A stretch of 10,802 nt of DNA from a virus (Duplodnaviria > Heunggongvirae > Uroviricota > Caudoviricetes). Of this stretch, positions 1-10,802 are shown one piece after another. The position numbers and the translations under genes are program-made. Positions within the stretch are counted from its first letter, which is position 1, and every line of letters begins with the position of its first letter. The notes beneath the pieces were generated by a model. It was not told the DNA's origin. It was given only the letters and a program-made list of their open reading frames with translations, and ran no database searches. The DNA lies in IMG/VR virus record IMGVR_UViG_2698536392_000023, positions 1 through 10,802 of that record. One strand, given 5' to 3'.

Positions 1-258
1 CAGAACCACAACAAAGTAATACTCCGGGGCTCTGGTGGCGCTGATTACTGTGCCTTCTCCACCTGTCGGCTTCACCACAACAGGTGTGCTCACATCACCT
101 TCTGCGACAATCGCCTGAATAAGTGCTGCGCCATCATCCGTATACGAAGAAAACGGCCCACCGTATGGTTGCCATCCTTCACGAATTTTTTGCGCAAGTG
201 CATCAGCAAGGTCTGACGGCGATGCCGCCCTGACCACATCGTAGTGTTTAAATGCCAT
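1..258 (-). CDS. 5' part of a CDS whose N-terminus is in the window (86 codons, continues past position 1); DUF1737-like N-terminus as recalled for prophage NanS-p/YjhS-type esterases
   Basis: ATG at 258-256 (minus) preceded by GGAGGA 5 nt upstream; reverse-complement translation MAFKHYDVVRAASPSDLADALAQKIREGWQPYGGPFSSYTDDGAALIQAIVAEGDVSTPVVVKPTGGEGTVISATRAPEYYFVVVL with no stop before the window edge. Absent from the ORF track, which holds only ORFs with a stop in the window; the track ORF 90..356 is a different frame. Family assignment is from memory. Confidence 0.6.
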   Translation of the reverse strand, partial: MAFKHYDVVRAASPSDLADALAQKIREGWQPYGGPFSSYTDDGAALIQAIVAEGDVSTPVVVKPTGGEGTVISATRAPEYYFVVVL

Positions 259-451
259 GAATCCTCCCGGCCGGGATAATATTGTGAGTAAAATGAGGAG
301 CGGGCTGAAATCCGGAAGTTACAGGACAATGGCAGAAGAGAGACAACAGCCCGCAATACGAAAAAGGCCGCGCTATTGCGCAGAGTGATTACTGTCGGAT
401 ATTATTCGCCAGCTGAAATATTACTTCACGTTTTGTTGTTTATTCCTTGCC

Positions 452-480
452 GCCCGCGTCTCCCTGCGCGGGCTTTTTTT
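452..480 (+). terminator. Rho-independent terminator-like hairpin (GCCCGCG-N8-CGCGGGC followed by T7), plus-strand orientation
   Basis: 7-bp GC-rich stem 452-458/467-473, 8-nt loop, T-run 474-480. Confidence 0.5.
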
Positions 481-491
481 GTCCATAAGAA

Positions 492-511
492 AGCCCCTCC
501 GGAGAGGGGCT
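492..511. other. 8-bp perfect inverted repeat AGCCCCTC-CGGA-GAGGGGCT; with the 452-480 hairpin forms a back-to-back hairpin pair
   Basis: Arms 492-499 and 504-511 are exact reverse complements; on the minus strand it is followed by TTCTTAT. Confidence 0.45.
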
Positions 512-707
512 GGAGAGTGGCGCTATGTGCCATTGCATGGTGCCGGGTGCCTCCCGGTGAATTCAGTACCAGCACCTGAATCCGCGATTATCCCATATAC
601 CTACTCGCTGATTGCCCCTCCGCACAGGGGGATTCACCATGCCAGTTTCTTTTAACAAACTCCCCGCAAACCAGACAACAGTCAACCGCCTGAATTGTGA
701 GACATTT

Positions 708-733
708 AAAAAAAAGGCCCGCAAAAGCGAGCC
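708..733 (-). terminator. Rho-independent terminator immediately after the tRNA cluster
   Basis: Minus-strand read GGCTCGC-TTTT-GCGGGCC followed by T8 (plus A-run 708-715); 7-bp stem with one G-U pair. Confidence 0.75.
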
Positions 734-747
734 AGGGAAAATAAGTG

Positions 748-824
748 TGGCGCGTTGTACTGGATTCGAACCAGTGACCGATTGCTTAGAAGGCAATTGC
801 TCTGTCCGGCTGAGCTAACAACGC
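748..824 (-). tRNA. tRNA-Arg, anticodon UCU (reads AGA)
   Basis: Reverse complement GCGTTGTTAGCTCAGCCGGACAGAGCAATTGCCTTCTAAGCAATCGGTCACTGGTTCGAATCCAGTACAACGCGCCA folds as a cloverleaf: perfect 7-bp acceptor stem, GCTC/GAGC D-stem, anticodon loop CTTCTAA, T-loop TTCGAAT, encoded CCA. Confidence 0.85.
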
Positions 825-837
825 ATGATGCATATAA

Positions 838-914
838 TGGACCGCCATCGGGGACTTGAACCCCGCGCAGCCAGCTTCGAAGGCTGGCGCTCTTTCCTGA
901 TGAGCTAATGGCGG
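838..914 (-). tRNA. tRNA-Arg, anticodon UCG (reads CGA)
   Basis: Reverse complement CCGCCATTAGCTCATCAGGAAAGAGCGCCAGCCTTCGAAGCTGGCTGCGCGGGGTTCAAGTCCCCGATGGCGGTCCA: 7-bp acceptor stem CCGCCAT/ATGGCGG, anticodon loop CTTCGAA, T-loop TTCAAGT, encoded CCA. The 5' nucleotide is C, which is unusual. Confidence 0.75.
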
Positions 915-921
915 TATGTGA

Positions 922-997
922 TGGTGGACCTTGCTGGATTTGAACCAGCGGCCTGGCGATTATGAGTCGCTCGCTCTCACCACTGAGCTAAAGGGCC
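922..997 (-). tRNA. ileZ: tRNA with anticodon CAU; body resembles the Ile2 (lysidine, ileX/ileZ-type) class rather than Met
   Basis: Reverse complement GGCCCTTTAGCTCAGTGGTGAGAGCGAGCGACTCATAATCGCCAGGCCGCTGGTTCAAATCCAGCAAGGTCCACCA; anticodon loop CTCATAA, T-loop TTCAAAT, encoded CCA. Acceptor position 3-70 is a C/T mismatch. Ile2 versus Met isotype is from recalled similarity and phage context. Confidence 0.75.
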
Positions 998-1032
998 GGG
1001 AGCAGAATAATAACGGTCCGTAATTAATTCCG

Positions 1033-1060
1033 CAATAAAAAACCCGCTCGGCGGCGGGTT
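1033..1060 (-). terminator. tR'-like intrinsic terminator downstream of the late promoter
   Basis: Minus-strand AACCCGC-CGCCGA-GCGGGTT followed by TTTTATT; sits about 45 nt downstream of the candidate -10. Confidence 0.65.
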
Positions 1061-1107
1061 GTAGAAACTCTTCTAATGTCAGGCATAAAAAGCCCATCGT
1101 TATGACG

Positions 1108-1135
1108 AATTTACCACAGATTCCGGAAAAATCAA
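1108..1135 (-). promoter_or_regulatory. pR'-like late promoter (Q-modified), sigma70-type
   Basis: Minus-strand TTGATT (plus 1130-1135), 16-nt spacer, TAAATT (plus 1108-1113), immediately downstream of the Q-like stop codon at 1141. Confidence 0.55.
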
Positions 1136-1140
1136 CCTTG

Positions 1141-1962
1141 TTACCTAGTTACCTTTTTTAACTGCCGCTCAGCCCATGCTTCTTCAATATCAAACCGGGT
1201 CACCAGCGCATCATAGAATTTCTTAACTGTTTTTTCCCATGACGCGCGTGTTATCTGGTTTGTCACCTCGCATATAGCATTAAATGCCTCCGTTGATGGT
1301 AGTCTTTTATAGCCACGACCACCACAACGCTGGCAGTCTCTGATAACAGGCATACCACGTTTTACCGACTCTTCACGGTAAAGGGCGACACCACGCCCAC
1401 GGCAATCCTTACAGGCGGTGTAAACCTCACCCTTTCCGCCACACTCCGGACAGGCAACTTTTACCACCTCCCTGACTTTTTTCCATTCTTCCCAGTAAGA
1501 CGGATACACACCTTTCGTACACTTTGCCCATACCGGCGGCTTACCATCCGGATACTGGACCTTGTTTGTAAAAACTACGCTTTCAATAAATTTTTCCCCA
1601 TAGCAACAAGGGCACTGCTTTTTACTCGCTGCGCTGCGGGCATAATCCTCAAAAGCGTACGAAGCCATAATGCGCATCACTAACGGTTTTATTTCTGCCG
1701 GAAGTTTTCTCAACGCCGCCACACGATCGCACCGACTGAGTGCATAATCTGCCAGTAATTCTGTTGCCCGCGCCCTGTCATTCATACTGATGCCCATTTT
1801 CCCCAGGAACGCAGAAAACCCCATCTCAGCCCGATTCTGTGTCATGCTCTGCGCGGCCATCACATCAGTGATACTCAGCGCATCTTTTGACGTTGAGGCC
1901 GATGCATCGGTCAGGCAAGGGGATTTTGGGGAGTAGTATTTCGGTAAATCTTCCAGTTTCAT
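1141..1962 (-). CDS. Q-like late antiterminator (273 aa) with three CxxCxGxG zinc-finger motifs
   Basis: Complete ORF; position directly upstream of the pR'/tR'/tRNA block and downstream of rusA; motifs CPECGGKG, CKDCRGRG, CQRCGGRG; start ATG overlaps the rusA stop (ATGA). Confidence 0.65.
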   Translation of the reverse strand: MKLEDLPKYYSPKSPCLTDASASTSKDALSITDVMAAQSMTQNRAEMGFSAFLGKMGISMNDRARATELLADYALSRCDRVAALRKLPAEIKPLVMRIMASYAFEDYARSAASKKQCPCCYGEKFIESVVFTNKVQYPDGKPPVWAKCTKGVYPSYWEEWKKVREVVKVACPECGGKGEVYTACKDCRGRGVALYREESVKRGMPVIRDCQRCGGRGYKRLPSTEAFNAICEVTNQITRASWEKTVKKFYDALVTRFDIEEAWAERQLKKVTR

Positions 1963-2333
1963 TTTTTGACCTGCCCTTCAAGCATTATGGGGTAAATCTT
2001 CACCCCCAGACGTCCACCAGATACTGGCTGAGCACGAACGATATTGATTTCATCAAACTGCTCATCGTCCATTAGCAACCCCGCATGCGTCAGCGCATCC
2101 AGCGGCGCTTTCAGAATATTGTCCAGGTCACGGCGGCGCTTATCCGGTGGCTCGGCAATAATCTTTATCGCCAGCCTTCCGGACAGGTTTAATTTCAGCC
2201 GCTGCTGGCGAACAATAAGTGCCACATCCCGGCGATAACGCTCACCGGCTTTTGATACAAAATATGTGCTGCCACGACGTCGCCAGTAGGTGTTCACCGT
2301 CGGCGGGTAAGGCAAAACAAACTCTATACGCAT
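1959..2333 (-). CDS. rusA: RusA-family Holliday junction resolvase (124 aa)
   Basis: Typical size; N-terminus LPYPPTVNTYWRR and the DKRRRDLDN acidic motif resemble RusA; SD AAGAGG 6 nt upstream of ATG at 2333. Confidence 0.85.
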   Translation of the reverse strand: MRIEFVLPYPPTVNTYWRRRGSTYFVSKAGERYRRDVALIVRQQRLKLNLSGRLAIKIIAEPPDKRRRDLDNILKAPLDALTHAGLLMDDEQFDEINIVRAQPVSGGRLGVKIYPIMLEGQVKK

Positions 2334-2345
2334 CAGTAACCTCTT

Positions 2346-2873
2346 TTACCCGAGCACGCCGGTTGCAAAGGCGTGATCAAGAAAACGAAAAATTAAATCA
2401 ACCTGGGAACCATGCTTTTCTTCGAACGCCAGTGGATCCGCATGAAGCTCGTTGTGATGCTCCCGACACAGCGGTAGCGTGAAAATATCGTGGGATTTTG
2501 TTCCCATTCCGCCCTGACCATGACCAATCAGATGATGAGGATCGTCCGCTGGCTTACCACAACACGCACACGGCTGTGTCTTTACCCAGCGTGTGTATTT
2601 CTCATTTACCCAGCGGCGACGTTTAGGTCGTTTCATGAAGGATTCCGGAGACTCCGGATCAACGGCAATGCTGACCACCGTCTTTTCCTGTGGTGGGTTC
2701 TGTTGCTGGTGGGTGTGAGGTGGTAGCGCAATATTTTTTGTGCGCTGCTTCAGTATGCTGGTGGCGGTCTGTTCTCCCGGTATGATGTCGCTTTCACGGT
2801 ATACGGAGCGGATTTTTTCCGCCGGTAATCCCAGAGAACAACGCGCTACTGCCTCAGGTAGTGCATCCACCAC
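2346..2873 (-). CDS. HNH-like zinc-finger protein, DUF968/YdfU-like C-terminal region (175 aa as drawn; start uncertain, may be the 3' part of a frameshifted longer gene)
   Basis: Motif CACCGKPADDPHHLIGHGQGGMGTKSHDIFTLPLCREHHNELH. ORF begins with GTG and has no recognisable SD; the same frame stays open upstream to 2954; 28-nt overlap with the upstream ORF. Confidence 0.55.
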   Translation of the reverse strand: MVDALPEAVARCSLGLPAEKIRSVYRESDIIPGEQTATSILKQRTKNIALPPHTHQQQNPPQEKTVVSIAVDPESPESFMKRPKRRRWVNEKYTRWVKTQPCACCGKPADDPHHLIGHGQGGMGTKSHDIFTLPLCREHHNELHADPLAFEEKHGSQVDLIFRFLDHAFATGVLG

Positions 2874-3448
2874 CTGATTGCAGGCCGCCCACAGGATAAT
2901 TCGGCCAGCGATAACTCCCTCTCCTGCGTGCCGCTTATTGCGTGACGGATGACGTCAATCATCCAGGCAACCAGATTCTGCTGAGCAAGTTGATCGAGTG
3001 ATTCTGATGTCTGGTCGCGCAGCTGGTTGTCACAGTGCCAGCACAACACCATCGCGCCGGTACCGTAACGGTGAATGACTGTTTCGCTGTGATGATAATC
3101 GCCGTGTGGCCACTGGCAGGATTTCACGTGACGTAATAACCAGTCAGACAGTGCACCAGCGCCGCCAGCTGCACGAATCACCCGCTCATCGCTGAAAAAT
3201 GGCAGCAGTGATTTATCTTCCGCCAGCGGCTGGCGAACAGTAGGAACCGCTCCAGATGGCAGCGCCCGCATGTTTTTCGGTTCCGGCTCCACCAGTATTC
3301 TGCCGTTATGGAATGCTGACATTGATTCACGGCCTGGCTTAACGATAACCAGACCGAGTTCCGGTACCAGAACAGGTCGAAGTAATACCCGCACATTACC
3401 TCCAGACGCGCTGACGGTAGCAGGCATGTGTCCGTGGCAGATGTGCAC
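2846..3448 (-). CDS. HNH-like motif protein (about 200 aa as drawn; start codon uncertain)
   Basis: Motif CQWPHGDYHHSETVIHRYGTGAMVLCWHCDNQL. ORF-track start is a GTG; first ATG is at 3427; overlaps neighbouring ORFs at both ends. Confidence 0.5.
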   Translation of the reverse strand: MHICHGHMPATVSASGGNVRVLLRPVLVPELGLVIVKPGRESMSAFHNGRILVEPEPKNMRALPSGAVPTVRQPLAEDKSLLPFFSDERVIRAAGGAGALSDWLLRHVKSCQWPHGDYHHSETVIHRYGTGAMVLCWHCDNQLRDQTSESLDQLAQQNLVAWMIDVIRHAISGTQERELSLAELSCGRPAIRWWMHYLRQ

Positions 3449-3668
3449 GAACAGGAAGATATACAGAAACGGTCCAGGTCAGACGATCAGCGTTCAGACT
3501 CCGCTCCACACGGACACCGCGACGCAGATACGCCTCTTGAGGCATATCTGCCTCATCGATCGTACAGAACAGATAGTGAAACCAGCCATACTGAGGCGCA
3601 CGAAAACGCCTCCCCTGCTTAATTTCCAGGTCGGCTTCAGAATTGTGGGATTTTATGTGTTGTGTCAT
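3396..3668 (-). CDS. Hypothetical protein, 90 aa
   Basis: ATG at 3668 with GGAGAA SD 6 nt upstream; the C-terminal 18 codons overlap the next ORF in another frame. Confidence 0.5.
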   Translation of the reverse strand: MTQHIKSHNSEADLEIKQGRRFRAPQYGWFHYLFCTIDEADMPQEAYLRRGVRVERSLNADRLTWTVSVYLPVRAHLPRTHACYRQRVWR

Positions 3669-3717
3669 CGGATTCTCCGGTGACAGCAGGTGTCAGTTGT
3701 TCAGGCTGACTGCGCGA

Positions 3718-3746
3718 ATTGTAAGGCAATACGCCGGAATGTACAA
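3718..3746 (-). promoter_or_regulatory. Candidate sigma70 promoter for the downstream accessory operon
   Basis: Minus-strand TTGTAC (plus 3741-3746), 17-nt spacer, TACAAT (plus 3718-3723). Confidence 0.4.
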
Positions 3747-3771
3747 ACAGAAAACCCGTCAGTAAGACGGG
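3745..3771 (-). terminator. Intrinsic terminator of the YgiW-like moron
   Basis: Minus-strand CCCGTC-TTACT-GACGGG followed by TTTTCTGTTT, beginning 19 nt after the stop codon at 3790. Confidence 0.7.
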
Positions 3772-3789
3772 CTTAACAAGCAGGGGCGG

Positions 3790-4134
3790 TTACTTTAATA
3801 ATTTCAGTGCCTTTACATCAACTTCAACACTGCTCAGGTCTTTATCAATTTCACCCTCAATTCTTACTTTGTCTTTCGGAGAAACATTCTGCCCGGCCCA
3901 TACGCTGTCATCGATATCCGTGACAATTGTCCCGCTATTATCACGAAACTCATAACGTTCATCACCCACTTTTTTAACGATGCTCCCTTCAAGGATAACC
4001 CATGCATCATCCTTCAGTTCTTTTGCCTGCGCTACTGTTGAACGCTCTGCTTCAGGCCCTTGGAAACCGCCCTGCTGTGCAAAAACGCCAAAAGACACAC
4101 CGGAAATAAGTGCTGCAATCAATACCTTTTTCAT
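3790..4134 (-). CDS. YgiW/YdeI (BOF, bacterial OB-fold) family secreted protein with signal peptide (114 aa); prophage moron
   Basis: N-terminal signal peptide MKKVLIAALISGVSFGVFA; family-typical motifs QGGFQGP, DDAWV, SGTI, VSPKDKV, DKD..SVE.DVK; SD AGAGGG upstream; own terminator. Confidence 0.8.
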   Translation of the reverse strand: MKKVLIAALISGVSFGVFAQQGGFQGPEAERSTVAQAKELKDDAWVILEGSIVKKVGDERYEFRDNSGTIVTDIDDSVWAGQNVSPKDKVRIEGEIDKDLSSVEVDVKALKLLK

Positions 4135-4253
4135 TCATAGCCCTCTTTCAGAGATGAACATTCAAACAGCATTTTCAGTATGATAAAGCGCGGGTGCGTT
4201 GAGGATGCCTGACACATCAGAGGTGGCGAGGGATTTCTCCCCCGCCAGGTCTC

Positions 4254-4409
4254 TTACTCCTCAGGTTCGTAAGCTGTGAAGACAGCGACCTCCGTCTGGC
4301 CGGTTCGGATTCGTACCTCGCAGAGGTCTTTCCTCGTTACCAGTGCCGTCACTATGACGGTAATACAGATGACGATCAGGGCGATTAACATCGCCTTTTG
4401 CTGCTTCAT
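4254..4409 (-). CDS. hokD: Hok/Gef-family type I toxin (51 aa), closest in my memory to HokD/RelF
   Basis: MKQQKAMLIALIVICITVIVTALVTRKDLCEVRIRTGQTEVAVFTAYEPEE; SD AAGGAG upstream of ATG at 4409. The ORF-track entry 4254..4466 is the same frame extended to an upstream ATG. Confidence 0.85.
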   Translation of the reverse strand: MKQQKAMLIALIVICITVIVTALVTRKDLCEVRIRTGQTEVAVFTAYEPEE

Positions 4410-4422
4410 AGCCTGCTTCTCC

Positions 4423-4451
4423 TTGCCTTTCGGCGCGTAAGAGGCTAACCT
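4423..4451 (+). promoter_or_regulatory. Candidate promoter for a sok-like antisense RNA
   Basis: Plus-strand TTGCCT (4423-4428), 17-nt spacer, TAACCT (4446-4451); predicted transcript runs antisense across the upstream in-frame ATG (4466) and its GAGG SD. Confidence 0.35.
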
Positions 4452-4584
4452 ACATGTGTCTAGCATGAAATTGGCCTCAGATTAATGTTAGGCGTCTTGC
4501 AGGACGCGTAATGTTAACTGGGGCTTTTCTCTGTCTGCCTTACGGTGGCATGCCCGAGGCAGACAGCCTCAAGCACCCGCAGCA

Positions 4585-4612
4585 ATTCTACTTAACTCTC
4601 GCTTTACCGCAA
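4585..4612 (-). promoter_or_regulatory. Candidate promoter of the hok mRNA
   Basis: Minus-strand TTGCGG (plus 4607-4612), 16-nt spacer, TAGAAT (plus 4585-4590); gives a leader of about 170 nt, typical for hok mRNAs. Confidence 0.4.
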
Positions 4613-4624
4613 ACCGTTTTTACC

Positions 4625-4646
4625 CGATATGGGAATTCCCATATCG
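4625..4646. repeat. 22-bp perfect palindrome CGATATGGGAATTCCCATATCG
   Basis: Exact reverse-complement symmetry; lies between the stop of the 34-aa ORF (4655) and the candidate hok -35. Confidence 0.9.
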
Positions 4647-4654
4647 TAATGAAT

Positions 4655-4759
4655 TCAGTTCCCTAGTCGATCCATCAAAAACACAACCAGGCAGTAAACG
4701 CCCACAACAGCAATAACAGCCAGCGCACCTTCCATTGCCAGTGAAATATCATCCGACAT
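4655..4759 (-). CDS. Small hydrophobic protein, 34 aa (MSDDISLAMEGALAVIAVVGVYCLVVFLMDRLGN), predicted single transmembrane helix
   Basis: ATG at 4759 with strong SD AAAGGAGGG 4-5 nt upstream; absent from the ORF track because it is under 60 aa. Confidence 0.5.
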   Translation of the reverse strand: MSDDISLAMEGALAVIAVVGVYCLVVFLMDRLGN

Positions 4760-4794
4760 ATTCCCTCCTTTGGTGTTAATCCCGGCGAACGTTT

Positions 4795-4878
4795 TTACCC
4801 CCACCGACAAATAACATATACTAAAAAATCAATAGCTATAGCAACGCCTGTAATTGCAAAGGCTTCAGGCCAGATCAT
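4795..4878 (-). CDS. Small hydrophobic protein, 27 aa (MIWPEAFAITGVAIAIDFLVYVICRWG)
   Basis: ATG at 4878 overlaps the stop of the DUF551 ORF (ATGA); SD GGAGG 8-12 nt upstream. Confidence 0.45.
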   Translation of the reverse strand: MIWPEAFAITGVAIAIDFLVYVICRWG

Positions 4879-5460
4879 TGGCGCACCTCCTGCGGCGGTT
4901 CTGGTAGCGGCATCCAGTCGGTTACATTGCGGCTCTGTGTTTCGAAAAATTCATCACCATTACGGACTACATCAAAAAACTCACCGTCTCGATATTGCGC
5001 ATAAAGAACGAATGCGCCATCACATAAAATAATTACGTGCTGACCATCATCCGGCATTCGCTCACTACAGCTTATCCAATCATCCAGAGTTACCGGATAG
5101 TTGGTTGACGTTTCCGAGATTTCCCGAAAATTATTGGTTGACGAACCCTTTTTTTTCCCGAAAGTTTCCAGCCTGAAGCATGGCGGCGCTGTCTGGCGGG
5201 GCAGCATATAGCGGCACGTATATTTCCGGTTCCTTATCAGCACCGGGTTGCTCTTCCAGTGAGAATGTCTTTCCGGTAAATCGATTCATATAAAGCACGG
5301 GCTCTGCTTCCAGCGAAGCCTGAGCAACAAGGGCCAGTGCTAAATCCAACTCAATTGCCTCGAGAGAATTTTTGAATGCTGTCTGTTTTACTGCAAATTT
5401 CATCGCCTTTACATTTTCACTAACATGACTGATTAACTGCTCTTTTGTAAAAGTGGTCAT
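4875..5460 (-). pseudogene. DUF551-domain phage protein split into two frames at an A8 (plus-strand T8) tract
   Basis: Frame A 5460..5131 (ATG at 5460, SD AAGGAG) ends ...REKKGFVNQ; frame B 5243..4875 reads ...FGKKKGSS... and carries the DUF551-like C-terminus (DDWISCSERMPDDG...WMPLPEPP). The frames switch at the T8 run 5149-5156. Confidence 0.6.
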
Positions 5461-5516
5461 CTCATTCTCCTTTGATGCGAATGCCAGCGACAATTGAAGC
5501 CTGATAGCTAATTCAC

Positions 5517-5912
5517 TCACAATACCGCCTCCTGAAAATTGCCCTGATAGAACGCCAGTACACGCAGCATAACTTCACTCTTCCGGCACTCGCCACAGAT
5601 TATGTTCTGTTGTCTGTCGTAGCGGCGTATTTCTCCGTCTGGTAACTTTCGAATCAATGTCTGGTCGGTTGTTTTCTCCGCTGCCTTACGCCATACGCGA
5701 TACACCTGTTCTGATGTAAAAACACCGTATTTACCGGGCATGTATAAATCGCCGCAAGCCAGTACATCCACAAGGCAACGTCTGACTGAATGCCAGCCTG
5801 CTCCCGTCGCTCTCTCCAGTTGTGATATCGTCATGCGTTCATTTTTGCGTACCAGCCCGATAATTCGGGCCTTCAGTTCTTCACGCTGTTCGTGTGTAAA
5901 AGGTTTCGCCAT
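5517..5912 (-). CDS. Hypothetical phage protein, 131 aa, possible winged-helix fold
   Basis: ATG at 5912 with GGAGG SD 7 nt upstream; segment TISQLERATGAGWHSVRRCL looks HTH-like. Confidence 0.6.
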   Translation of the reverse strand: MAKPFTHEQREELKARIIGLVRKNERMTISQLERATGAGWHSVRRCLVDVLACGDLYMPGKYGVFTSEQVYRVWRKAAEKTTDQTLIRKLPDGEIRRYDRQQNIICGECRKSEVMLRVLAFYQGNFQEAVL

Positions 5913-5927
5913 AAGCGCCTCCGGCTA

Positions 5928-6653
5928 TCACTTTTCCGACACAATACGACCGGATGAATCGACAATCTGCCGAACAATATCCCAGTGCTTGTTCAGATCC
6001 CGCAGCGCGGCGCAGACTCGCTCCCACTTCTGAACCTGACCTTTTGCTCGGCGCAGCTCGCGGTTAGCCACATGCAGCGATGGTAGAATCAGGTCATCTG
6101 CTTTCGTTTCAGTGAACGATTGCTGCAACTTCACAATGTCCTCCACCGCTTCTGTTTTAATTTCTTCCTGTGCAGCCGTTTCCTGGACTGGTAACGCAAC
6201 ACCTGCTGGCTGAGGAAGGGCTTTACCCTCCGTTTCAGCTACGGATGCAGCTTTCTGCTCTGCCGGTAAATCAACGCCCGGTATGCAGTAACGAAATTTA
6301 CCATCCTGATTCACGCGAATCAGACGCCCTTTGCTGATTGCCATTGCCAGCGATGAATTCGCACGGCGGGAGGTAATTCCGAACATCAATGCCAGCTCAT
6401 CCGCCGTTTGTGGGCCATGATGTTCAATCGCCTCAGTCAGCATTTGCGCTGTCACTTTCGGTACCGGTGACACTGGTTCACTTTCACCAGTCTGAGTCAG
6501 CCACCACATCGACCCCTTGTTATCCGCTTCACCACGGCGCTTCAGTTTCCACAGTTCGTTGACAGCATCTTCGCGGCTGATTCCAAGGCGCGATGCCACT
6601 ACCTGTGAAGAGGCTTTTTTCAGTGCTTTCAGTGCGTCAAATACAGTTTCCAT
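5928..6653 (-). CDS. Phage protein with two tandem winged-helix-like domains and a C-terminal coiled-coil (241 aa), possibly DUF1627-like
   Basis: ATG at 6653 with GGAGGA SD; internal repeat of HTH-like segments ([22 protein letters not shown] and [26 protein letters not shown]). The ORF-track start at 6671 is a TTG. Confidence 0.65.
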
Positions 6654-6674
6654 TAAAACGTCCTCCAACAAAAA

Positions 6675-7421
6675 TTACTTCACAACCCTCTGATTGCTGA
6701 CATTTGGACGCCAGCTATCCCAGTTAAACGTCACCCATCGACCACCGCTCATGGTCATCCGGTCCATAATCCTCTCACCAAGAAGCGTGCTCATTGCGGC
6801 ATGATTCAGGTTTGTTAACATCCCGACACTGCACAGTGATGCTGTCCGGCGATCAATTATCTGGTGTAATACCACCTGCTCGTTTTTCGTCTCCCGCTGA
6901 ACGCCTATTTCATCCAGGACCAGCAAATCAACCCCGCAAAGCTCCTGTAAAAATTTTTCCCCGGATTTGCCGTTGTCGTAGCTGTCATGCAACACGCTCA
7001 TGACATCAGACACGGTGACGATAATCACGCTGCGCCCCTTCGCCATCAGCCGGTTACCCATCGCCGCTGCAAGGTGATTTTTCCCGGTGCCGGTTTTACC
7101 GCTGAACACAAAATTCGTGCACCCGGTCATCAGTTCGTCAGCTATGGATTTGGCCTGGCTCAGCGCGTATTTTTGCCCGTCGTTCTGCACCTGATAATTC
7201 GCAAACGAGCATTTGCTGTGCAGAGGCTGGATGCCCGAACGATTCAGGATTTTTTCCACCCGCAACTGGCGATTCTGGCGGTTAATCTCCTCGCTGCGTT
7301 TTCGTCCTTCAGCAAGTTGCCATTCCCGCCACTCCTCCACCGTCCGGTACGGTGGAACCGCCCCCTGTGGTGCAAGTCTGCGAATACGTTCAAGAACCCC
7401 AACTGCCGCAATGTTTTTCAT
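6675..7421 (-). CDS. DnaC-like replicative helicase loader (AAA+), 248 aa
   Basis: Walker A GKTGTGKNHLAAA, Walker B LLVLDEIG, and colinearity with E. coli DnaC (MKN..., NRSGI.PLH..CSF.NY); SD AGGGGGTGA upstream. Confidence 0.85.
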   Translation of the reverse strand: MKNIAAVGVLERIRRLAPQGAVPPYRTVEEWREWQLAEGRKRSEEINRQNRQLRVEKILNRSGIQPLHSKCSFANYQVQNDGQKYALSQAKSIADELMTGCTNFVFSGKTGTGKNHLAAAMGNRLMAKGRSVIIVTVSDVMSVLHDSYDNGKSGEKFLQELCGVDLLVLDEIGVQRETKNEQVVLHQIIDRRTASLCSVGMLTNLNHAAMSTLLGERIMDRMTMSGGRWVTFNWDSWRPNVSNQRVVK

Positions 7422-7427
7422 GACACG

Positions 7428-8498
7428 TCACCCCCTGAATCCCGGCGGTATTTCAGTGTCCGGTTCAGAAATGTGATTCACGCAACGCTGGTTGTTCGTG
7501 CCGCTTACCGGGAGCAACCAGGGGTTTTCAAAATTCCGGTCCGGCCCAAAAAACGTCGTCGCTCGCTGAACAAATTCCGTTCCCGCTTTCCCGGTCGCCG
7601 CCAGGTATCTCGCGTAACGCCTCACACCATCCAGCATGGTCTCTGGTGGCACCCCCTCGCGCAATCTGGCCTTCCAGGCACTGAATGCGGATTTCTTCGG
7701 GTTTGCTCCGGCACGCAACGGGTACTCCCGCCAGACCTGTTCGAACACATCCGGATAATCCACTCGTCCCACAGACTGCCCGGTGTTTTCCGGGACTACC
7801 CGATCGGCTTCCCGCTGAATGGCGGAATCGGCTTCGGGCTGCTGCAGTTGGTGTGATTGCTCCGGCCTTGCGGTCATCACCTGCTGCACAGCGCCCGAAT
7901 CGGCTTTCAGCGCATACGCTGAATCGGCTTCCGGTGTCGTGCCTACTGGCTGACCAGGATTGACGGTCTGAACATCCCCTGCCTGGTTCGTGGCGTTTTT
8001 TACGCCATGGACCATAGTGTTTTGATCTTCTTGATCTGTATCTTTATCTGTATCTTTATCTGTCGTGACTCGTCGTGACATGTGCGTGACATTTCGTGAC
8101 GCGCCGTGACAATCGCCATTTTGTTCCCGCTTTCTTTCCCTCTCTCGCTGCGCCCTCTTGCGCTCTGCAGGAGATTTTGCGGTTTGCGAAATATTGCCGT
8201 TGTCCTCTTTAAGCACCTGGCGTTTTTCCCATCCAGTGATTAAATCACCATCAAGTACCCGCCCCTGCATCGTCTGCAAAATTGAATCAATTACCTCTTC
8301 TGTCACGTCGAGCGCACTTGCCAAATCTTCTGTCGTGACATCAATGTGACCTCGCGTGACATTTCGTGACGCGCTCACCAGGAGGTGGATATACACTGCC
8401 ATCACTGTTGCAATTGGCTGCCCTGACACCCTGGCAATTGTTCGCCACTTAGGGTCATTTGGCATGTCATGCCATAATCTGAGCCAGGCGTTAGCCAT
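7428..8498 (-). CDS. O-like replication initiator (replisome organiser) carrying internal origin iterons, about 356 aa
   Basis: Sits upstream of the DnaC-like gene; iteron arrays lie inside the coding sequence as in lambda O. Probable start is ATG at 8498 with SD AGAGGTGA; the ORF track starts two codons earlier at a GTG. Confidence 0.7.
   Translation of the reverse strand: MANAWLRLWHDMPNDPKWRTIARVSGQPIATVMAVYIHLLVSASRNVTRGHIDVTTEDLASALDVTEEVIDSILQTMQGRVLDGDLITGWEKRQVLKEDNGNISQTAKSPAERKRAQRERERKREQNGDCHGASRNVTHMSRRVTTDKDTDKDTDQEDQNTMVHGVKNATNQAGDVQTVNPGQPVGTTPEADSAYALKADSGAVQQVMTARPEQSHQLQQPEADSAIQREADRVVPENTGQSVGRVDYPDVFEQVWREYPLRAGANPKKSAFSAWKARLREGVPPETMLDGVRRYARYLAATGKAGTEFVQRATTFFGPDRNFENPWLLPVSGTNNQRCVNHISEPDTEIPPGFRG
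8034..8063. repeat. Tandem 12-bp repeat (ATCTGTATCTTT x2.5) encoding a TDKD repeat in the initiator
   Basis: Exact copies at 8034-8045 and 8046-8057, partial at 8058-8063; moderately AT-rich, adjacent to iteron array A. Confidence 0.85.
8064..8110. repeat. Iteron array A: five CGTGAC repeats at 10/11/10/10-bp spacing (candidate replication origin)
   Basis: CGTGAC at 8064, 8074, 8085, 8095, 8105; helical-turn periodicity. Confidence 0.8.
8334..8374. repeat. Iteron array B: four (C)GTGAC repeats at 10-11 bp spacing; includes a 21-bp exact copy of part of array A
   Basis: Repeats at 8334, 8345, 8355, 8365; GCGTGACATTTCGTGACGCGC occurs at both 8084-8104 and 8354-8374. Confidence 0.8.
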
Positions 8499-8569
8499 AC
8501 TCACCTCTTCTGATACCGAATCTTTTTACTCACGAGTTGCCGGAAGCGATTCGATATGGCTATTATCAC

Positions 8570-8995
8570 TCAATGCACTGCCACAGCATTTCCTGCCGGG
8601 CCACCACGGTTCATCTGATTGAAACCGGCGATTGCCACCGCGACAAAATCATCAGCGTCTCTCACCAGTCGCTCCCGCGTCTCCACCAGCTCCCGAAAAT
8701 AAGCTGAACTGTGGCTGCGCATTCTGGCCACCAGCAAAGGTGGCATTGCCTTTTCGATCGCTGGTAACAACGCCTGAATTTTTTCAACTGCATCAGGGGT
8801 GTCTTTCTCTACCCAGCGGAAAATTTTCTGGGTATTGCGAGCCAGGGCTTCCGGATGGCTGTCGTCATACAGTTCCGGGAACGTCATACCCAACTCAAAA
8901 TAAGCCTGGGTTATTCCAGCTGCTGGAACTTTCTCACCATCAGGATATGCCCAGGCATTCATCGCCATGCGGATGTGCTCATGTTTGATTTTCAT
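8570..8995 (-). CDS. ydaT: YdaT-like protein (cII position; family reported as toxic in Rac prophage), 141 aa
   Basis: Size and position downstream of the Cro-like gene match Rac ydaT; N-terminus MKIKHEHI; SD AGAGG upstream; 17-nt overlap with the ydaS-like gene. Family call is from memory. Confidence 0.55.
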   Translation of the reverse strand: MKIKHEHIRMAMNAWAYPDGEKVPAAGITQAYFELGMTFPELYDDSHPEALARNTQKIFRWVEKDTPDAVEKIQALLPAIEKAMPPLLVARMRSHSSAYFRELVETRERLVRDADDFVAVAIAGFNQMNRGGPAGNAVAVH

Positions 8996-9302
8996 GAATC
9001 ATTTGCCTCTTGATGCTTCGGGTATGATCGTTTTCGTCATTTGGTTGCTTCATCGACATATTCTGCGAATAACATGACGAGCGTCGTAAGTATGTCCAAT
9101 CAACATCAGGACGAAGTTCTTCACACAGGACACCACCTTTTGTTGCTCGTTCAATCGCAGGACATCTCTCAGCAGGCAACTGACGTACACCTTTGATCCA
9201 TTGATTTACGCTTGGAGGAGATACACCTAAAAGCCTAGCCATTGCTGATTGCCCACCGACAACAGCACAAGCTCGTTTGAATGAATAGTTATCTTTTTTC
9301 AT
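8979..9302 (-). CDS. ydaS: YdaS-like Cro-type HTH protein, about 107 aa
   Basis: HTH segment QSAMARLLGVSPPSVNQWIKG; ATG at 9302 with GGAG SD (the ORF track begins at an upstream GTG, 9323); divergent from the repressor across an operator region. Confidence 0.65.
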   Translation of the reverse strand: MKKDNYSFKRACAVVGGQSAMARLLGVSPPSVNQWIKGVRQLPAERCPAIERATKGGVLCEELRPDVDWTYLRRSSCYSQNMSMKQPNDENDHTRSIKRQMIHENQT

Positions 9303-9329
9303 CGAATGAACTCCAAAAAACACACAATA

Positions 9330-9359
9330 ATATTAGGCTTAGCCTAATGTGATTATCAA
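9330..9359 (-). promoter_or_regulatory. PR-like promoter for the ydaS-ydaT-replication operon
   Basis: Minus-strand TTGATA (plus 9354-9359), 18-nt spacer, TAATAT (plus 9330-9335); spacer contains operator O1. Confidence 0.45.
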
Positions 9360-9398
9360 TAGGCTATGCCTAACGCTTCGAGAGTAGGGATTGCCTAA
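9333..9398. promoter_or_regulatory. OR-like operator cluster: three TTAGGC-N3-GCCTAA palindromes spaced 25-26 bp centre to centre
   Basis: O1 TTAGGCTTAGCCTAA 9333-9347 (perfect); O2 ATAGGCTATGCCTAA 9359-9373; O3 TAGGGATTGCCTAA 9385-9398 (one half-site imperfect). Confidence 0.7.
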
Positions 9399-9426
9399 CG
9401 CGATGCGCATAGGAGACTATTAAGCA

Positions 9427-9903
9427 ATGCTTAGTGGTAAAGACTTAGGCCGAGCGATAGAGCAGGCCATTAACAAAAAAATTGCATCAGGAGCCGTCAA
9501 ATCAAAGGCGGAAATCGCACGTCATTTCAAAGTCCAACCACCATCAATCCATGACTGGATTAAGAAAGGTTCGATAAGTAAAGACAAACTTCCAGAACTA
9601 TGGCGTTTCTTTTCTGATGTGGTTGGTCCAGAGCATTGGGGGCTTAACGAATACCCCATACCAACCCCATCCACTTCAGATACAAAAAGTGAACTTTTAG
9701 ACATAAACAGCCTTTATCAAGCCGCCTCTGATGAAAAAAGAGCAATTGTGGCTTTCCTCTTATCTGGAAATGCTACGGAGCCTAGTTGGGTTGATCATGA
9801 CGTTCGCGCCTACATTGCCGCAATGGAAATGAAGGTAGCTAACTATCTGAAAAATCAAGAATCAAAACGGAAAAGCCAGAACATCACCAAGACAGGAACT
9901 TAA
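9427..9903 (+). CDS. racR: RacR-like prophage repressor (cI-position HTH protein), 158 aa
   Basis: Divergent from the Cro-like gene across operators; HTH segment SKAEIARHFKVQPPSIHDWIKKG; AGGAG SD; size matches RacR. Family call is from memory. Confidence 0.65.
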   Translation: MLSGKDLGRAIEQAINKKIASGAVKSKAEIARHFKVQPPSIHDWIKKGSISKDKLPELWRFFSDVVGPEHWGLNEYPIPTPSTSDTKSELLDINSLYQAASDEKRAIVAFLLSGNATEPSWVDHDVRAYIAAMEMKVANYLKNQESKRKSQNITKTGT

Positions 9904-9997
9904 ACTTATATGGTCCGACGGGAAATTCCTAGTTCCCGTTAGTTAACTCCTACTACCTCTCCCACAAACCATCACCTATTAGGTCGCACCCAAACCA

Positions 9998-10036
9998 TTA
10001 GGCATAGCCTACTGACAAGCAATTAGGCATTTCCTA
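9998..10036. promoter_or_regulatory. OL-like operators: two further TTAGGC-N3-(G/T)CCTA palindromes downstream of the repressor gene
   Basis: TTAGGCATAGCCTA 9998-10011 and TTAGGCATTTCCTA 10023-10036; centres 25 bp apart. Confidence 0.6.
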
Positions 10037-10040
10037 TAGT
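10012..10040 (+). promoter_or_regulatory. PL-like sigma70 promoter overlapping the OL operators
   Basis: CTGACA (10012-10017), 17-nt spacer, TATAGT (10035-10040). Confidence 0.5.
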
Positions 10041-10244
10041 TTTCCCATACCAACCCATCCCGTCCCACACAATACAGGGCAATACCTAGAGTTACCCGGC
10101 AGTGGTCAGGGATTAAGTAGCCAGCCCGAGGCGTATGAACATGACGGCGGGAACACTTTGTATAACAGCGCAGCAGGTTTTTAGTTCCGCTACCCCAGCG
10201 TTAAGGGGAAATGAGGTCAGCATGGATACTATCGAGCTCCGATC

Positions 10245-10802
10245 CCTAAAGTAACCAGAGCCAGGCTCACCATGGAAGACTGGAAAAAAATTTACAATGC
10301 AACGCCTGAAAAACACTTTATCCGTAACGCAATGCTTCTTGCGATTGTTACTGGTCAGCGCCGTGATGACATTTGCCATATGCGTTTTTCAGATGTGTGG
10401 AACGAACACCTGCATATTACCCAGGGAAAAACTGGAATGCGTCTGGCGTTACCGCTGACGCTACGCTGTGATGCCATTGGGATATCGCTAAAAGAAGTGA
10501 TTGATGGATGCAGGGACAGAATATTGAGTCCATACCTGATTCATAGTCGGCACCAAAAACAACCAAAACCAATGAGTAAAGACAACCTGAGCGATTACTT
10601 TGCCAAAGCGCGGGAGCTGGCTGGAATAATTCCACCAGCAGGAAAAACTCCGCCAACATTTCATGAACAACGTTCTCTATCAGAACGGCTGTACCGTGCA
10701 CAGGGTATCGATACAAAAACATTACTGGGACATAAAGTCCAGGCAACCACCGATCGTTATAACGATACTCGTGGTCAGGAATGGGTTAAATTGGTTGTTT
10801 GA
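10245..10802 (+). pseudogene. Lambda-type tyrosine integrase, C-terminal catalytic domain only (N-terminal about 175 aa missing)
   Basis: Colinear with the lambda Int C-terminus (TGQRR, HEQRSLSERLY, LLGHK, DRYNDTRGQEW, stop at 10802); in-frame stop at 10212-10214 and no Int-like sequence upstream in any frame. Confidence 0.8.

Follow-up and report, generated by a model that had tools for sequence, protein, structure and literature searches.

A candidate replication origin with two phased iteron arrays inside the initiator gene of a lambdoid prophage with a Rac-type module

We analysed a 10,802-nucleotide stretch of Caudoviricetes DNA (IMG/VR record IMGVR_UViG_2698536392_000023, positions 1 to 10,802; hereafter the window), in which a minus-strand open reading frame (ORF; 7428-8498, ATG at 8498) encodes a replication initiator of 356 amino acids annotated as a 'phage replisome organizer'. 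This gene contains two arrays of short direct repeats (iterons), called A and B. Our conclusion is that the segment 7984-8370 is probably the vegetative replication origin of a lambdoid prophage with a Rac-type replication module, situated within its own initiator gene and with array B looping in. On the sequence evidence array B is most likely an auxiliary initiator-binding array, for which we prefer the role of a loop or enhancer element; helping and restraining are not separable at this level.

Array A (8064-8110, minus strand) consists of five direct iterons with the sense unit nnGTCACGnn at 10/11-bp spacing. On the plus strand its CGTGAC copies start at 8064, 8074, 8085, 8095 and 8105 (steps of 10, 11, 10 and 10 bp), and it corresponds to nt 389-435 of the gene, codons 130-145, encoding CHGASRNVTHMSRRVTT. 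Array B (8334-8370, minus strand) comprises four direct iterons with the same core, CGTGAC at 8334, 8355 and 8365 and TGTGAC at 8345 (steps of 11, 10 and 10 bp), in nt 129-165 of the gene, codons 43-55. The arrays are offset by 270 bp on the plus strand, with a gap of 223 bp, and share an exact 21-bp duplicate, GCGTGACATTTCGTGACGCGC, at 8084-8104 and 8354-8374. A single inverted copy of the core (8302-8306; GTCAC on the plus strand, GTGAC on the sense strand) lies 28 nt downstream of array B in the direction of the gene. The 10.8-kb window has 25 GTGAC/GTCAC sites, ten of them inside the 306 bp of 8065-8370, and none was found in the immunity region of the window or anywhere in 8371-10802. When the window was shuffled 300 times with dinucleotides preserved, the longest 10/11-bp-spaced chain of any 5-mer was 2 (288 shuffles) or 3 (12 shuffles); the observed chains of one 5-mer were 5 and 4, the only chains of at least 3 in the window. 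Chance is excluded as the source of the arrays. All the coordinates in the first-pass annotation of this DNA, which had reported nine (C)GTGAC copies in two arrays at helical-turn spacing, the 270-bp offset and the 21-bp duplicate, proved exact, and the moderately AT-rich tandem that it had placed next to array A was confirmed, at 8029-8063; the inverted copy, a hairpin at 7984-8014 and two GATC sites at 8024 and 8033 had gone unnoticed. A promoter scan returned no convincing promoter near array B; its one weak match, antisense and within array A, was at chance level and was rejected as evidence. No Rfam family was detected over the origin region.

The repeats are selected as DNA. In the sense direction array A reads TGT CAC GGC GCG TCA CGA AAT GTC ACG CAC ATG TCA CGA CGA GTC ACG ACA, and because the core GTCAC occupies all three reading frames, the arrays are not a peptide repeat. 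For array B, the N-terminal 95 codons of 23 homologues (65-79% protein identity, gap-free alignment) were compared, third-position entropy being scored only at codons with a conserved amino acid. This entropy was 0.13 bits within the four array B cores (n = 6) versus 1.32 bits elsewhere (n = 39; Mann-Whitney p = 1.3e-4). The base following each array B core was also invariant in this alignment, as was the inverted copy, where the valine codon GTG (8302-8306) was unchanged in 20 of the 20 sequences retaining valine. Since synonymous sites in the cores are frozen, array B is under selection beyond its coding role. When DNA from Escherichia, Aeromonas and Pseudomonas was aligned, the cores were invariant, the spacers were variable and whole 10/11-bp units had been gained or lost.

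The two-array arrangement is conserved across the family. A profile scan with one genome per species yielded 80 loci, 35-99% identical, in gamma-, beta- and alpha-proteobacteria as well as a few other groups. For chain analysis of 82 loci, the best phased 5-mer was chosen using the array A region alone, after which chains of it were sought elsewhere. A chain of at least 3 was present at the array A position in 73 of the 82 loci; at the array B position the same 5-mer formed chains of at least 3 in 40 of these 73 and of at least 2 in 50, while chains of at least 3 in the remaining ~2.4 kb of the locus were found in 0 of 73. Aeromonas phage pAEv1818 and Pseudomonas phage phi1, whose N-terminal domains are ~70% identical to that of the window, have both arrays at the same gene positions, with four copies in array B, three or four in array A and whole-unit insertions or deletions in array A; Bordetella and many other homologues likewise retain both. 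In phage Tritos, a complete 46-kb near-identical relative, the two arrays are the only core clusters. Among 80 E. coli prophage copies from a viral contig scan with the N-domain alignment the arrays were almost invariant, all copies being identical over the 103-residue query and so informative for polymorphism only.

The same layout also occurs with other cores, for instance GAACGC in an uncultured phage and GCAACG in Ralstonia phage Hennie. By clade the cores are GTCACG, CGAACGC, GCAACG, GTAACG, GTGACG and CTACG, and the switch is joint in both arrays. As the two arrays of each genome share a core and cores differ between clades, one specificity determinant most likely reads both. The neighbourhoods that contain the N-domain and the arrays vary (DnaC-like, DnaB or P-like partners; different repressors); since the arrays accompany the N-domain despite such variation, the determinant would most simply be the initiator itself. 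An inverted copy was found near array B in 20 of 41 loci, mostly of the GTCAC clade, and near array A in 1 of 41. We also observed that all cores seen share an ACG end (GTCACG, GCAACG, GTAACG, GTGACG, CGAACG, CTACG), so that clade specificity appears to be carried by the 5' two or three bases of the core only.

Array A is adjoined by an AT-rich tract that is a candidate DNA-unwinding element (8020-8063, minus strand, purine-rich on the sense strand). The 12-bp tandem TCTTTATCTGTA is repeated 2.9 times at 8029-8063, where GC drops to 0.37-0.38; in the sense direction the tract has a period of 6/12 nt, with GATAAAGATACA three times and then GATCAAGAAGATCAAAA, encoding DKDTDKDTDQEDQ, and it includes the two GATC sites at 8024 and 8033. 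In enterobacterial versions, Dam (GATC) sites occur repeatedly within the tract or shortly after it. In most analysed loci array A is directly followed by an AT-rich, sense-purine-rich tract of 6-nt units, (GATAAA)n, (GATACA)n, (GAGAAG)n or (GAAGCA)n. For 70 loci, the 42 nt after array A had a GC content of 0.36 versus 0.58 in the rest of the gene, a third-position GC content (GC3) of 0.23 versus 0.62 and a purine content of 0.74 versus 0.54 (Wilcoxon p~1e-13 for all three). Because GC3 in the tract is low even in 28 GC-rich genes (0.32 versus 0.72), its AT-richness is selected against host codon usage, which argues for a DNA role, as an unwinding element, besides the encoding of a D/K/T/E-rich linker. 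The 12-bp unit GATAAAGATACA varies from 2 to 5 copies among the 80 near-identical E. coli prophage copies, and the iterons are fixed. Just beyond the tract lies an imperfect inverted repeat of 13 pairs (7984-8014), a potential hairpin or cruciform with a DNA folding energy of -8.7 kcal/mol (z = -2.7). A perfect stem of at least 6 bp starting 10-70 nt after array A was found in 40 of 70 loci, versus 8-15 of 70 in five control windows of equal size; the stems are wholly different in sequence between loci, and many have 4-nt loops (TGAC, TAAC or TATC). Only array A has the tract and the hairpin, array B being without either.

From its N-terminus on, the initiator comprises a winged helix-turn-helix (HTH) domain (residues 1-93), then a basic helix at 110-127, a disordered linker holding the origin, a C-terminal domain and a DnaT/YdaU-like tail, IPPGFRG. 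Its AlphaFold2 model has a mean predicted local distance difference test (pLDDT) score of 73, with residues 12-95 mostly above 85. The N-domain was modelled as three helices, a loop with a beta-bridge (46-55), an HTH (56-63 and 67-77) and a beta-hairpin wing (78-88), and is predicted to be a winged-helix domain. According to this model, array B codons 43-55 encode the end of helix 3 and the loop preceding the HTH, and array A codons 130-145 lie in the disordered linker. Over its full length the protein matches phrog_3729, 'replication initiation protein' (E 3e-256), and its N-domain is matched by replisome-organizer families of PHROG (5e-6 to 2e-4). The whole TIGR01714 model (replisome organizer N-terminus) aligned with 15.4 bits, below the cut-off of 49.8 (E 0.016), and Pfam gave no family for the initiator at E<=0.01. 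The name 'phage replisome organizer' is that of NCBI (Prokaryotic Genome Annotation Pipeline, PGAP). The last 24 residues match the DnaT tail, which was all that a PDB sequence search matched, and relatives join the same N-domain to different C-terminal domains (PF17948, DnaT-like, and PF09524).

Directly downstream of the initiator gene lies a DnaC/IstB-like AAA+ helicase-loader gene (6675-7421, minus strand; PF01695, E 2.7e-19), 80% identical to Rac YdaV and the probable partner of the initiator; YdaT- and YdaS-like genes lie upstream. The early genes of the window are on its minus strand. The initiator ends with ..EPDTEIPPGFRG (7428-7500 of the window), a tail also present in Rac YdaU (13 of 19 residues), at the C-terminus of E. 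coli DnaT and, as PPGF, in the Aeromonas homologue. Since each tail-bearing gene sits upstream of a DnaC-like gene, a conserved loader-docking tail is suggested. Other arrangements were also seen. Phage Tritos (3536-5069) has a near-identical initiator gene followed by a gene for a 140-aa hypothetical protein instead of the DnaC-like loader, Ralstonia phage Hennie has the initiator and then dnaB, and Pseudomonas phi1 has the initiator and then a 'replication protein P' gene; judging from these neighbours, the initiator N-domain and origin are found with several different partners for helicase delivery. Over its C-terminal half (7428-7906) the initiator gene has ~82% DNA identity to genes of the Shiga toxin (Stx) phages POCJ13, 75/02 Stx and phiSTEC1589, which are named 'primosomal protein I / replication protein O' and have a different 5' half; this is a mosaic joint close to the origin region, of a type familiar from the O genes of lambdoid phages.

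Taken together, these features suggest the following mechanism. The winged-helix domain of the initiator would bind the 10/11-bp-spaced direct repeats nGTCACGn, which lie on one face of the helix, probably with each repeat taken by one protein, in the manner of iteron plasmids. The core array would be array A, whose loading distorts the DNA and opens the tract at 8020-8063, and the GC-rich inverted repeat at 7984-8014 may bound the opened region or else have a structural or priming function. Recruitment of the DnaC-like loader and host DnaB would fall to the C-terminal part of the initiator and its IPPGFRG tail. Array B with its inverted copy would offer the initiator further binding sites, clustered 223 bp upstream, and most likely joins the same nucleoprotein complex by looping, thereby raising initiator occupancy at array A. 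The lack of a tract and hairpin, the dispensability in distant members and the frequent inverted or palindromic copy all point to a role for array B distinct from that of array A. More tentatively, one may picture a two-array looped origin with one array in the codons of the initiator's DNA-binding domain; if so, a switch of origin specificity would need concerted change of two arrays and of the peptide loop encoded by one of them. Equally tentatively, the 6-nt-periodic purine tract could be more than DNA that melts easily, acting perhaps as a register for single-stranded-DNA binding by the DnaT-like C-terminal part, in which case it would parallel, in a phage, the unwinding unit of 'DnaA box plus DnaA-trio' in bacteria. 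Viable isolated phages carry the initiator gene at 97-98% DNA identity.

Several observations weigh against this interpretation. Distant homologues, several in number, have array A without array B, so that array B is not essential to the basic mechanism and would best be described as widespread but accessory. The inter-array distances gave a mean phase of ~0 at periods of 10.0 and 10.4 bp, a broad and weak signal; with unique distances and a period scan the phasing reached p~0.03, shared ancestry and the gain or loss of repeat units being confounders. The alignment columns that best track iteron class were those of the loop encoded by array B, which is trivial, and, ahead of the basic helix, residues 100-108; for the recognition helix the association was only moderate, with shared ancestry again a confounder, and no specificity-determining residues were identified outside the array B-encoded loop. 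A Foldseek search of the N-domain model against the PDB gave no significant match, the top listed entries being winged-helix regulators, which fits the topology and is not proof. No DnaA box (TTATCCACA, at most one mismatch) was found in 7400-8600, the single match in the window being at 6064. Finally, a literature search, mostly without subscription journals, found no binding, unwinding or origin-activity experiments for this family.

Array B might instead exert negative control, by titrating the initiator, by handcuffing with array A on the same or a sister molecule, or as a roadblock or operator for autorepression, a role that we consider possible and rather unlikely. Extra iteron arrays such as P1 incA and F incC titrate or handcuff, and inverted copies in iteron plasmids are dimer-binding operator sites; here an inverted or palindromic copy is common at array B (20/41) and almost never seen at array A (1/41), although it is largely limited to one clade. 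The repeats are also direct, short and phased like the plasmid iterons that bind monomers (PMC5043065), and array B has no AT tract or hairpin of its own and is dispensable in distant homologues. Against such control, a lytic phage origin has no obvious need to regulate copy number, and array B lies 129 nt into the coding region, not at a promoter, with no convincing promoter nearby. It is improbable that the arrays are the halves of a bidirectional origin, each receiving one helicase, or two alternative origins. They are similar in size, with the same core and orientation, and the DNA between them is somewhat AT-richer than the flanks (GC 0.43-0.47 at 8200-8290), but the tract and hairpin are conserved at array A only and array B is missing from part of the family. 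In lambda, moreover, whose core layout is the same, a single array gives bidirectional firing, which counts against the notion of two halves.

We find it very hard to credit that the repeats are sites for another phage regulator (Cro/YdaS-like, YdaT-like or a repressor) or for a host factor, unconnected with replication. YdaS- and YdaT-like genes do lie just upstream, but GTCAC/GTGAC is absent from the intergenic immunity region and from 8371-10802, the arrays accompany the N-domain into phages with quite different regulators and partners, and the layout with tract and hairpin matches a verified origin, that of lambda. Practically no weight is left for the idea that the repeats are a side effect of coding (codon bias or a repeat in the protein), of chance or of a recent duplication. 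A hint of recent gene conversion might be read from the exact 21-bp duplicate, and the peptide fragment SRNVT is encoded in both arrays; yet the 10/11-bp period places the core in three frames with frozen synonymous sites, both arrays are kept from Escherichia to Pseudomonas and, with other cores, in other clades, and the shuffles never reached the observed chains. This reading is already refuted by the shuffles, the conservation across 82 loci and the codon test.

An auxiliary, looped-in array B beside a core array A thus remains our preferred interpretation, and the proposal of the first-pass annotation that the iterons mark a candidate origin in the initiator gene, lambda-like but split, is sustained by homologue conservation, by joint core switching and by the lambda order of elements. 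That annotation had named two ways in which it could fail, a repeat at the protein level only and homologous initiators that replicate without the repeats, and neither was observed: the cores were found in three frames with frozen synonymous sites, and homologues keep the arrays. Three of its points need narrowing. The term 'O-like ORF' suits the role and position of a protein that has no Pfam match and no similarity to lambda O. The comparison with Rac-type modules holds for YdaS, YdaT and the loader (80% identical to YdaV) but not for the initiator, which is not YdaU and resembles it in the last 19 residues only. As for a bipartite origin, both clusters are present but they are not equivalent, given the tract and hairpin at array A only and the absence of array B from several distant homologues.

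The initiator gene is present at full length in 1,647 of 5,426 complete E. coli genomes (30%), and the N-domain family comprises ~2,000 clusters at 50% identity across Proteobacteria. An origin made of iterons and an AT-rich tract inside an initiator gene is of a known kind. In the same literature search this particular origin was not found described, and earlier work on it is possible; nor did we find described a family-wide second array in the codons of the DNA-binding domain, plasmid-style phased direct repeats or joint clade switching. The comparative pattern supplies a ready origin annotation for very common E. coli prophages, several of them inducible. It also offers material for the study of initiator-origin co-evolution, in a natural series of iteron specificities, at least five or six in number, that share the ACG end, and a simple test bed for the function of a second in-gene iteron array. 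Elsewhere in the window, Rfam identified three tRNA genes (751-824, 841-914 and 925-997) and the small RNA STnc100 (481-671), all on the minus strand, and a full-length match to the sok antitoxin RNA (4404-4578, minus strand, 116.9 bits). The sok match implies a hok/sok-type toxin-antitoxin locus in the prophage; in phage Tritos a HokD toxin is annotated at the equivalent place.

Among known systems, iteron plasmids (P1 incC/incA and F ori2/incC) resemble the window in their direct, helically phased repeats and in an AT-rich opening region beside one array. In P1 and F a second array of the same repeats lies a few hundred bp away, on the other side of the initiator gene or within it. They differ in that the arrays flank the rep gene and are not in its codons, in that their origins usually use DnaA boxes, of which there are none in 7400-8600 here, and in that auxiliary arrays are copy-number controls, a role that is only a candidate for array B. 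Plasmid iterons that bind monomers are direct, short, helically phased repeats (reviewed in PMC5043065).

Phage SPP1 offers a second parallel. Its gene 38 product, G38P, is also called a 'replisome organizer', and oriL lies in gene 38, which contains repeats and a short-period AT-rich repeat at nt 360-450, the relative place of array A and its tract. BLASTP of the initiator against G38P gave no significant similarity, so the layout alone is comparable. The second G38P-binding region of SPP1, oriR, is ~32 kb from oriL; this differs from a second region 223 bp away within one gene, and the Tritos genome is without a third cluster.

The origin of lambda has the same order of elements as array A, its tract and the hairpin, at nearly the same place in the gene. 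It lies within O and is described as four iterons of 18 bp connected to an AT-rich sequence of 38 bp (PMC3349717). In the lambda sequence the four annotated iterons are at nt 349-433 of gene O, followed by a purine-rich AT tract, ACACAAAAGACACTATTACAAAAGAAAAAAGAAAAG, and then by a palindrome with 12-bp arms and a 4-nt loop; examination of the lambda O sequence revealed no further iteron copies. Both origins lie inside the initiator gene, in the part encoding the inter-domain linker (array A at nt 389-435, lambda iterons at 349-433), with iterons, purine-rich AT tract and short palindrome in this order in the direction of transcription, and in both a helicase-loader gene lies downstream of the initiator gene. 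The lambda sites, however, are four 18-bp palindromes 20-24 bp apart that bind O dimers, whereas the window has 10/11-bp direct repeats with an asymmetric 6-7-bp core, a second array of a kind that lambda O lacks, an initiator without detectable similarity to O and a loader that is DnaC-like, not P. Membership in the lambda O family (Phage_rep_O) was considered and rejected, as no Pfam family was found at E<=0.01 and the iterons are not ~18-bp palindromes; some phage records label the initiator 'DNA replication protein O', by role only.

The Rac prophage of E. coli K-12 shares with the window the module order ydaS, ydaT, initiator and ydaV-like loader, the loader being 80% identical. The initiators differ: YdaU belongs to DUF1376, its N-domain is unrelated, and the alignment is confined to the last 19 residues (13/19, E 7e-6); the window initiator has no DUF1376 match. 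In the Rac stretch examined, ydaU (3120-3977; tail 3918-3974) carries (G/A)TGTTCAA repeats at gene nt 147, 232, 391, 424 and 436 with an inverted copy at 452, followed by AATAAAGATACAGATAAAGATCTAAAA and then by a CCCCCCC..GGGGG palindrome. These repeats differ from those of the window in their irregular spacing and in that upstream there are single copies (nt 147 and 232) and no phased array. The ydaU tract, AAAGATACAGATAAAGATCTAAAA, is nearly identical to that of the window and the C-run/G-run palindrome comes next. Rac has been reported to have an active origin, oriJ (PMC3945230), and this layout of repeats, tract and palindrome is probably the sequence basis of oriJ. Because ydaU carries repeats, a near-identical tract (GATACAGATAAAGATC) and a palindrome, the origin layout recurs despite an unrelated N-domain. 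The recurrence of the lambda element order in the linker-coding part of unrelated initiator genes, of which Rac ydaU is one example, points to the middle 'origin cassette' as a module that is either conserved or exchangeable.

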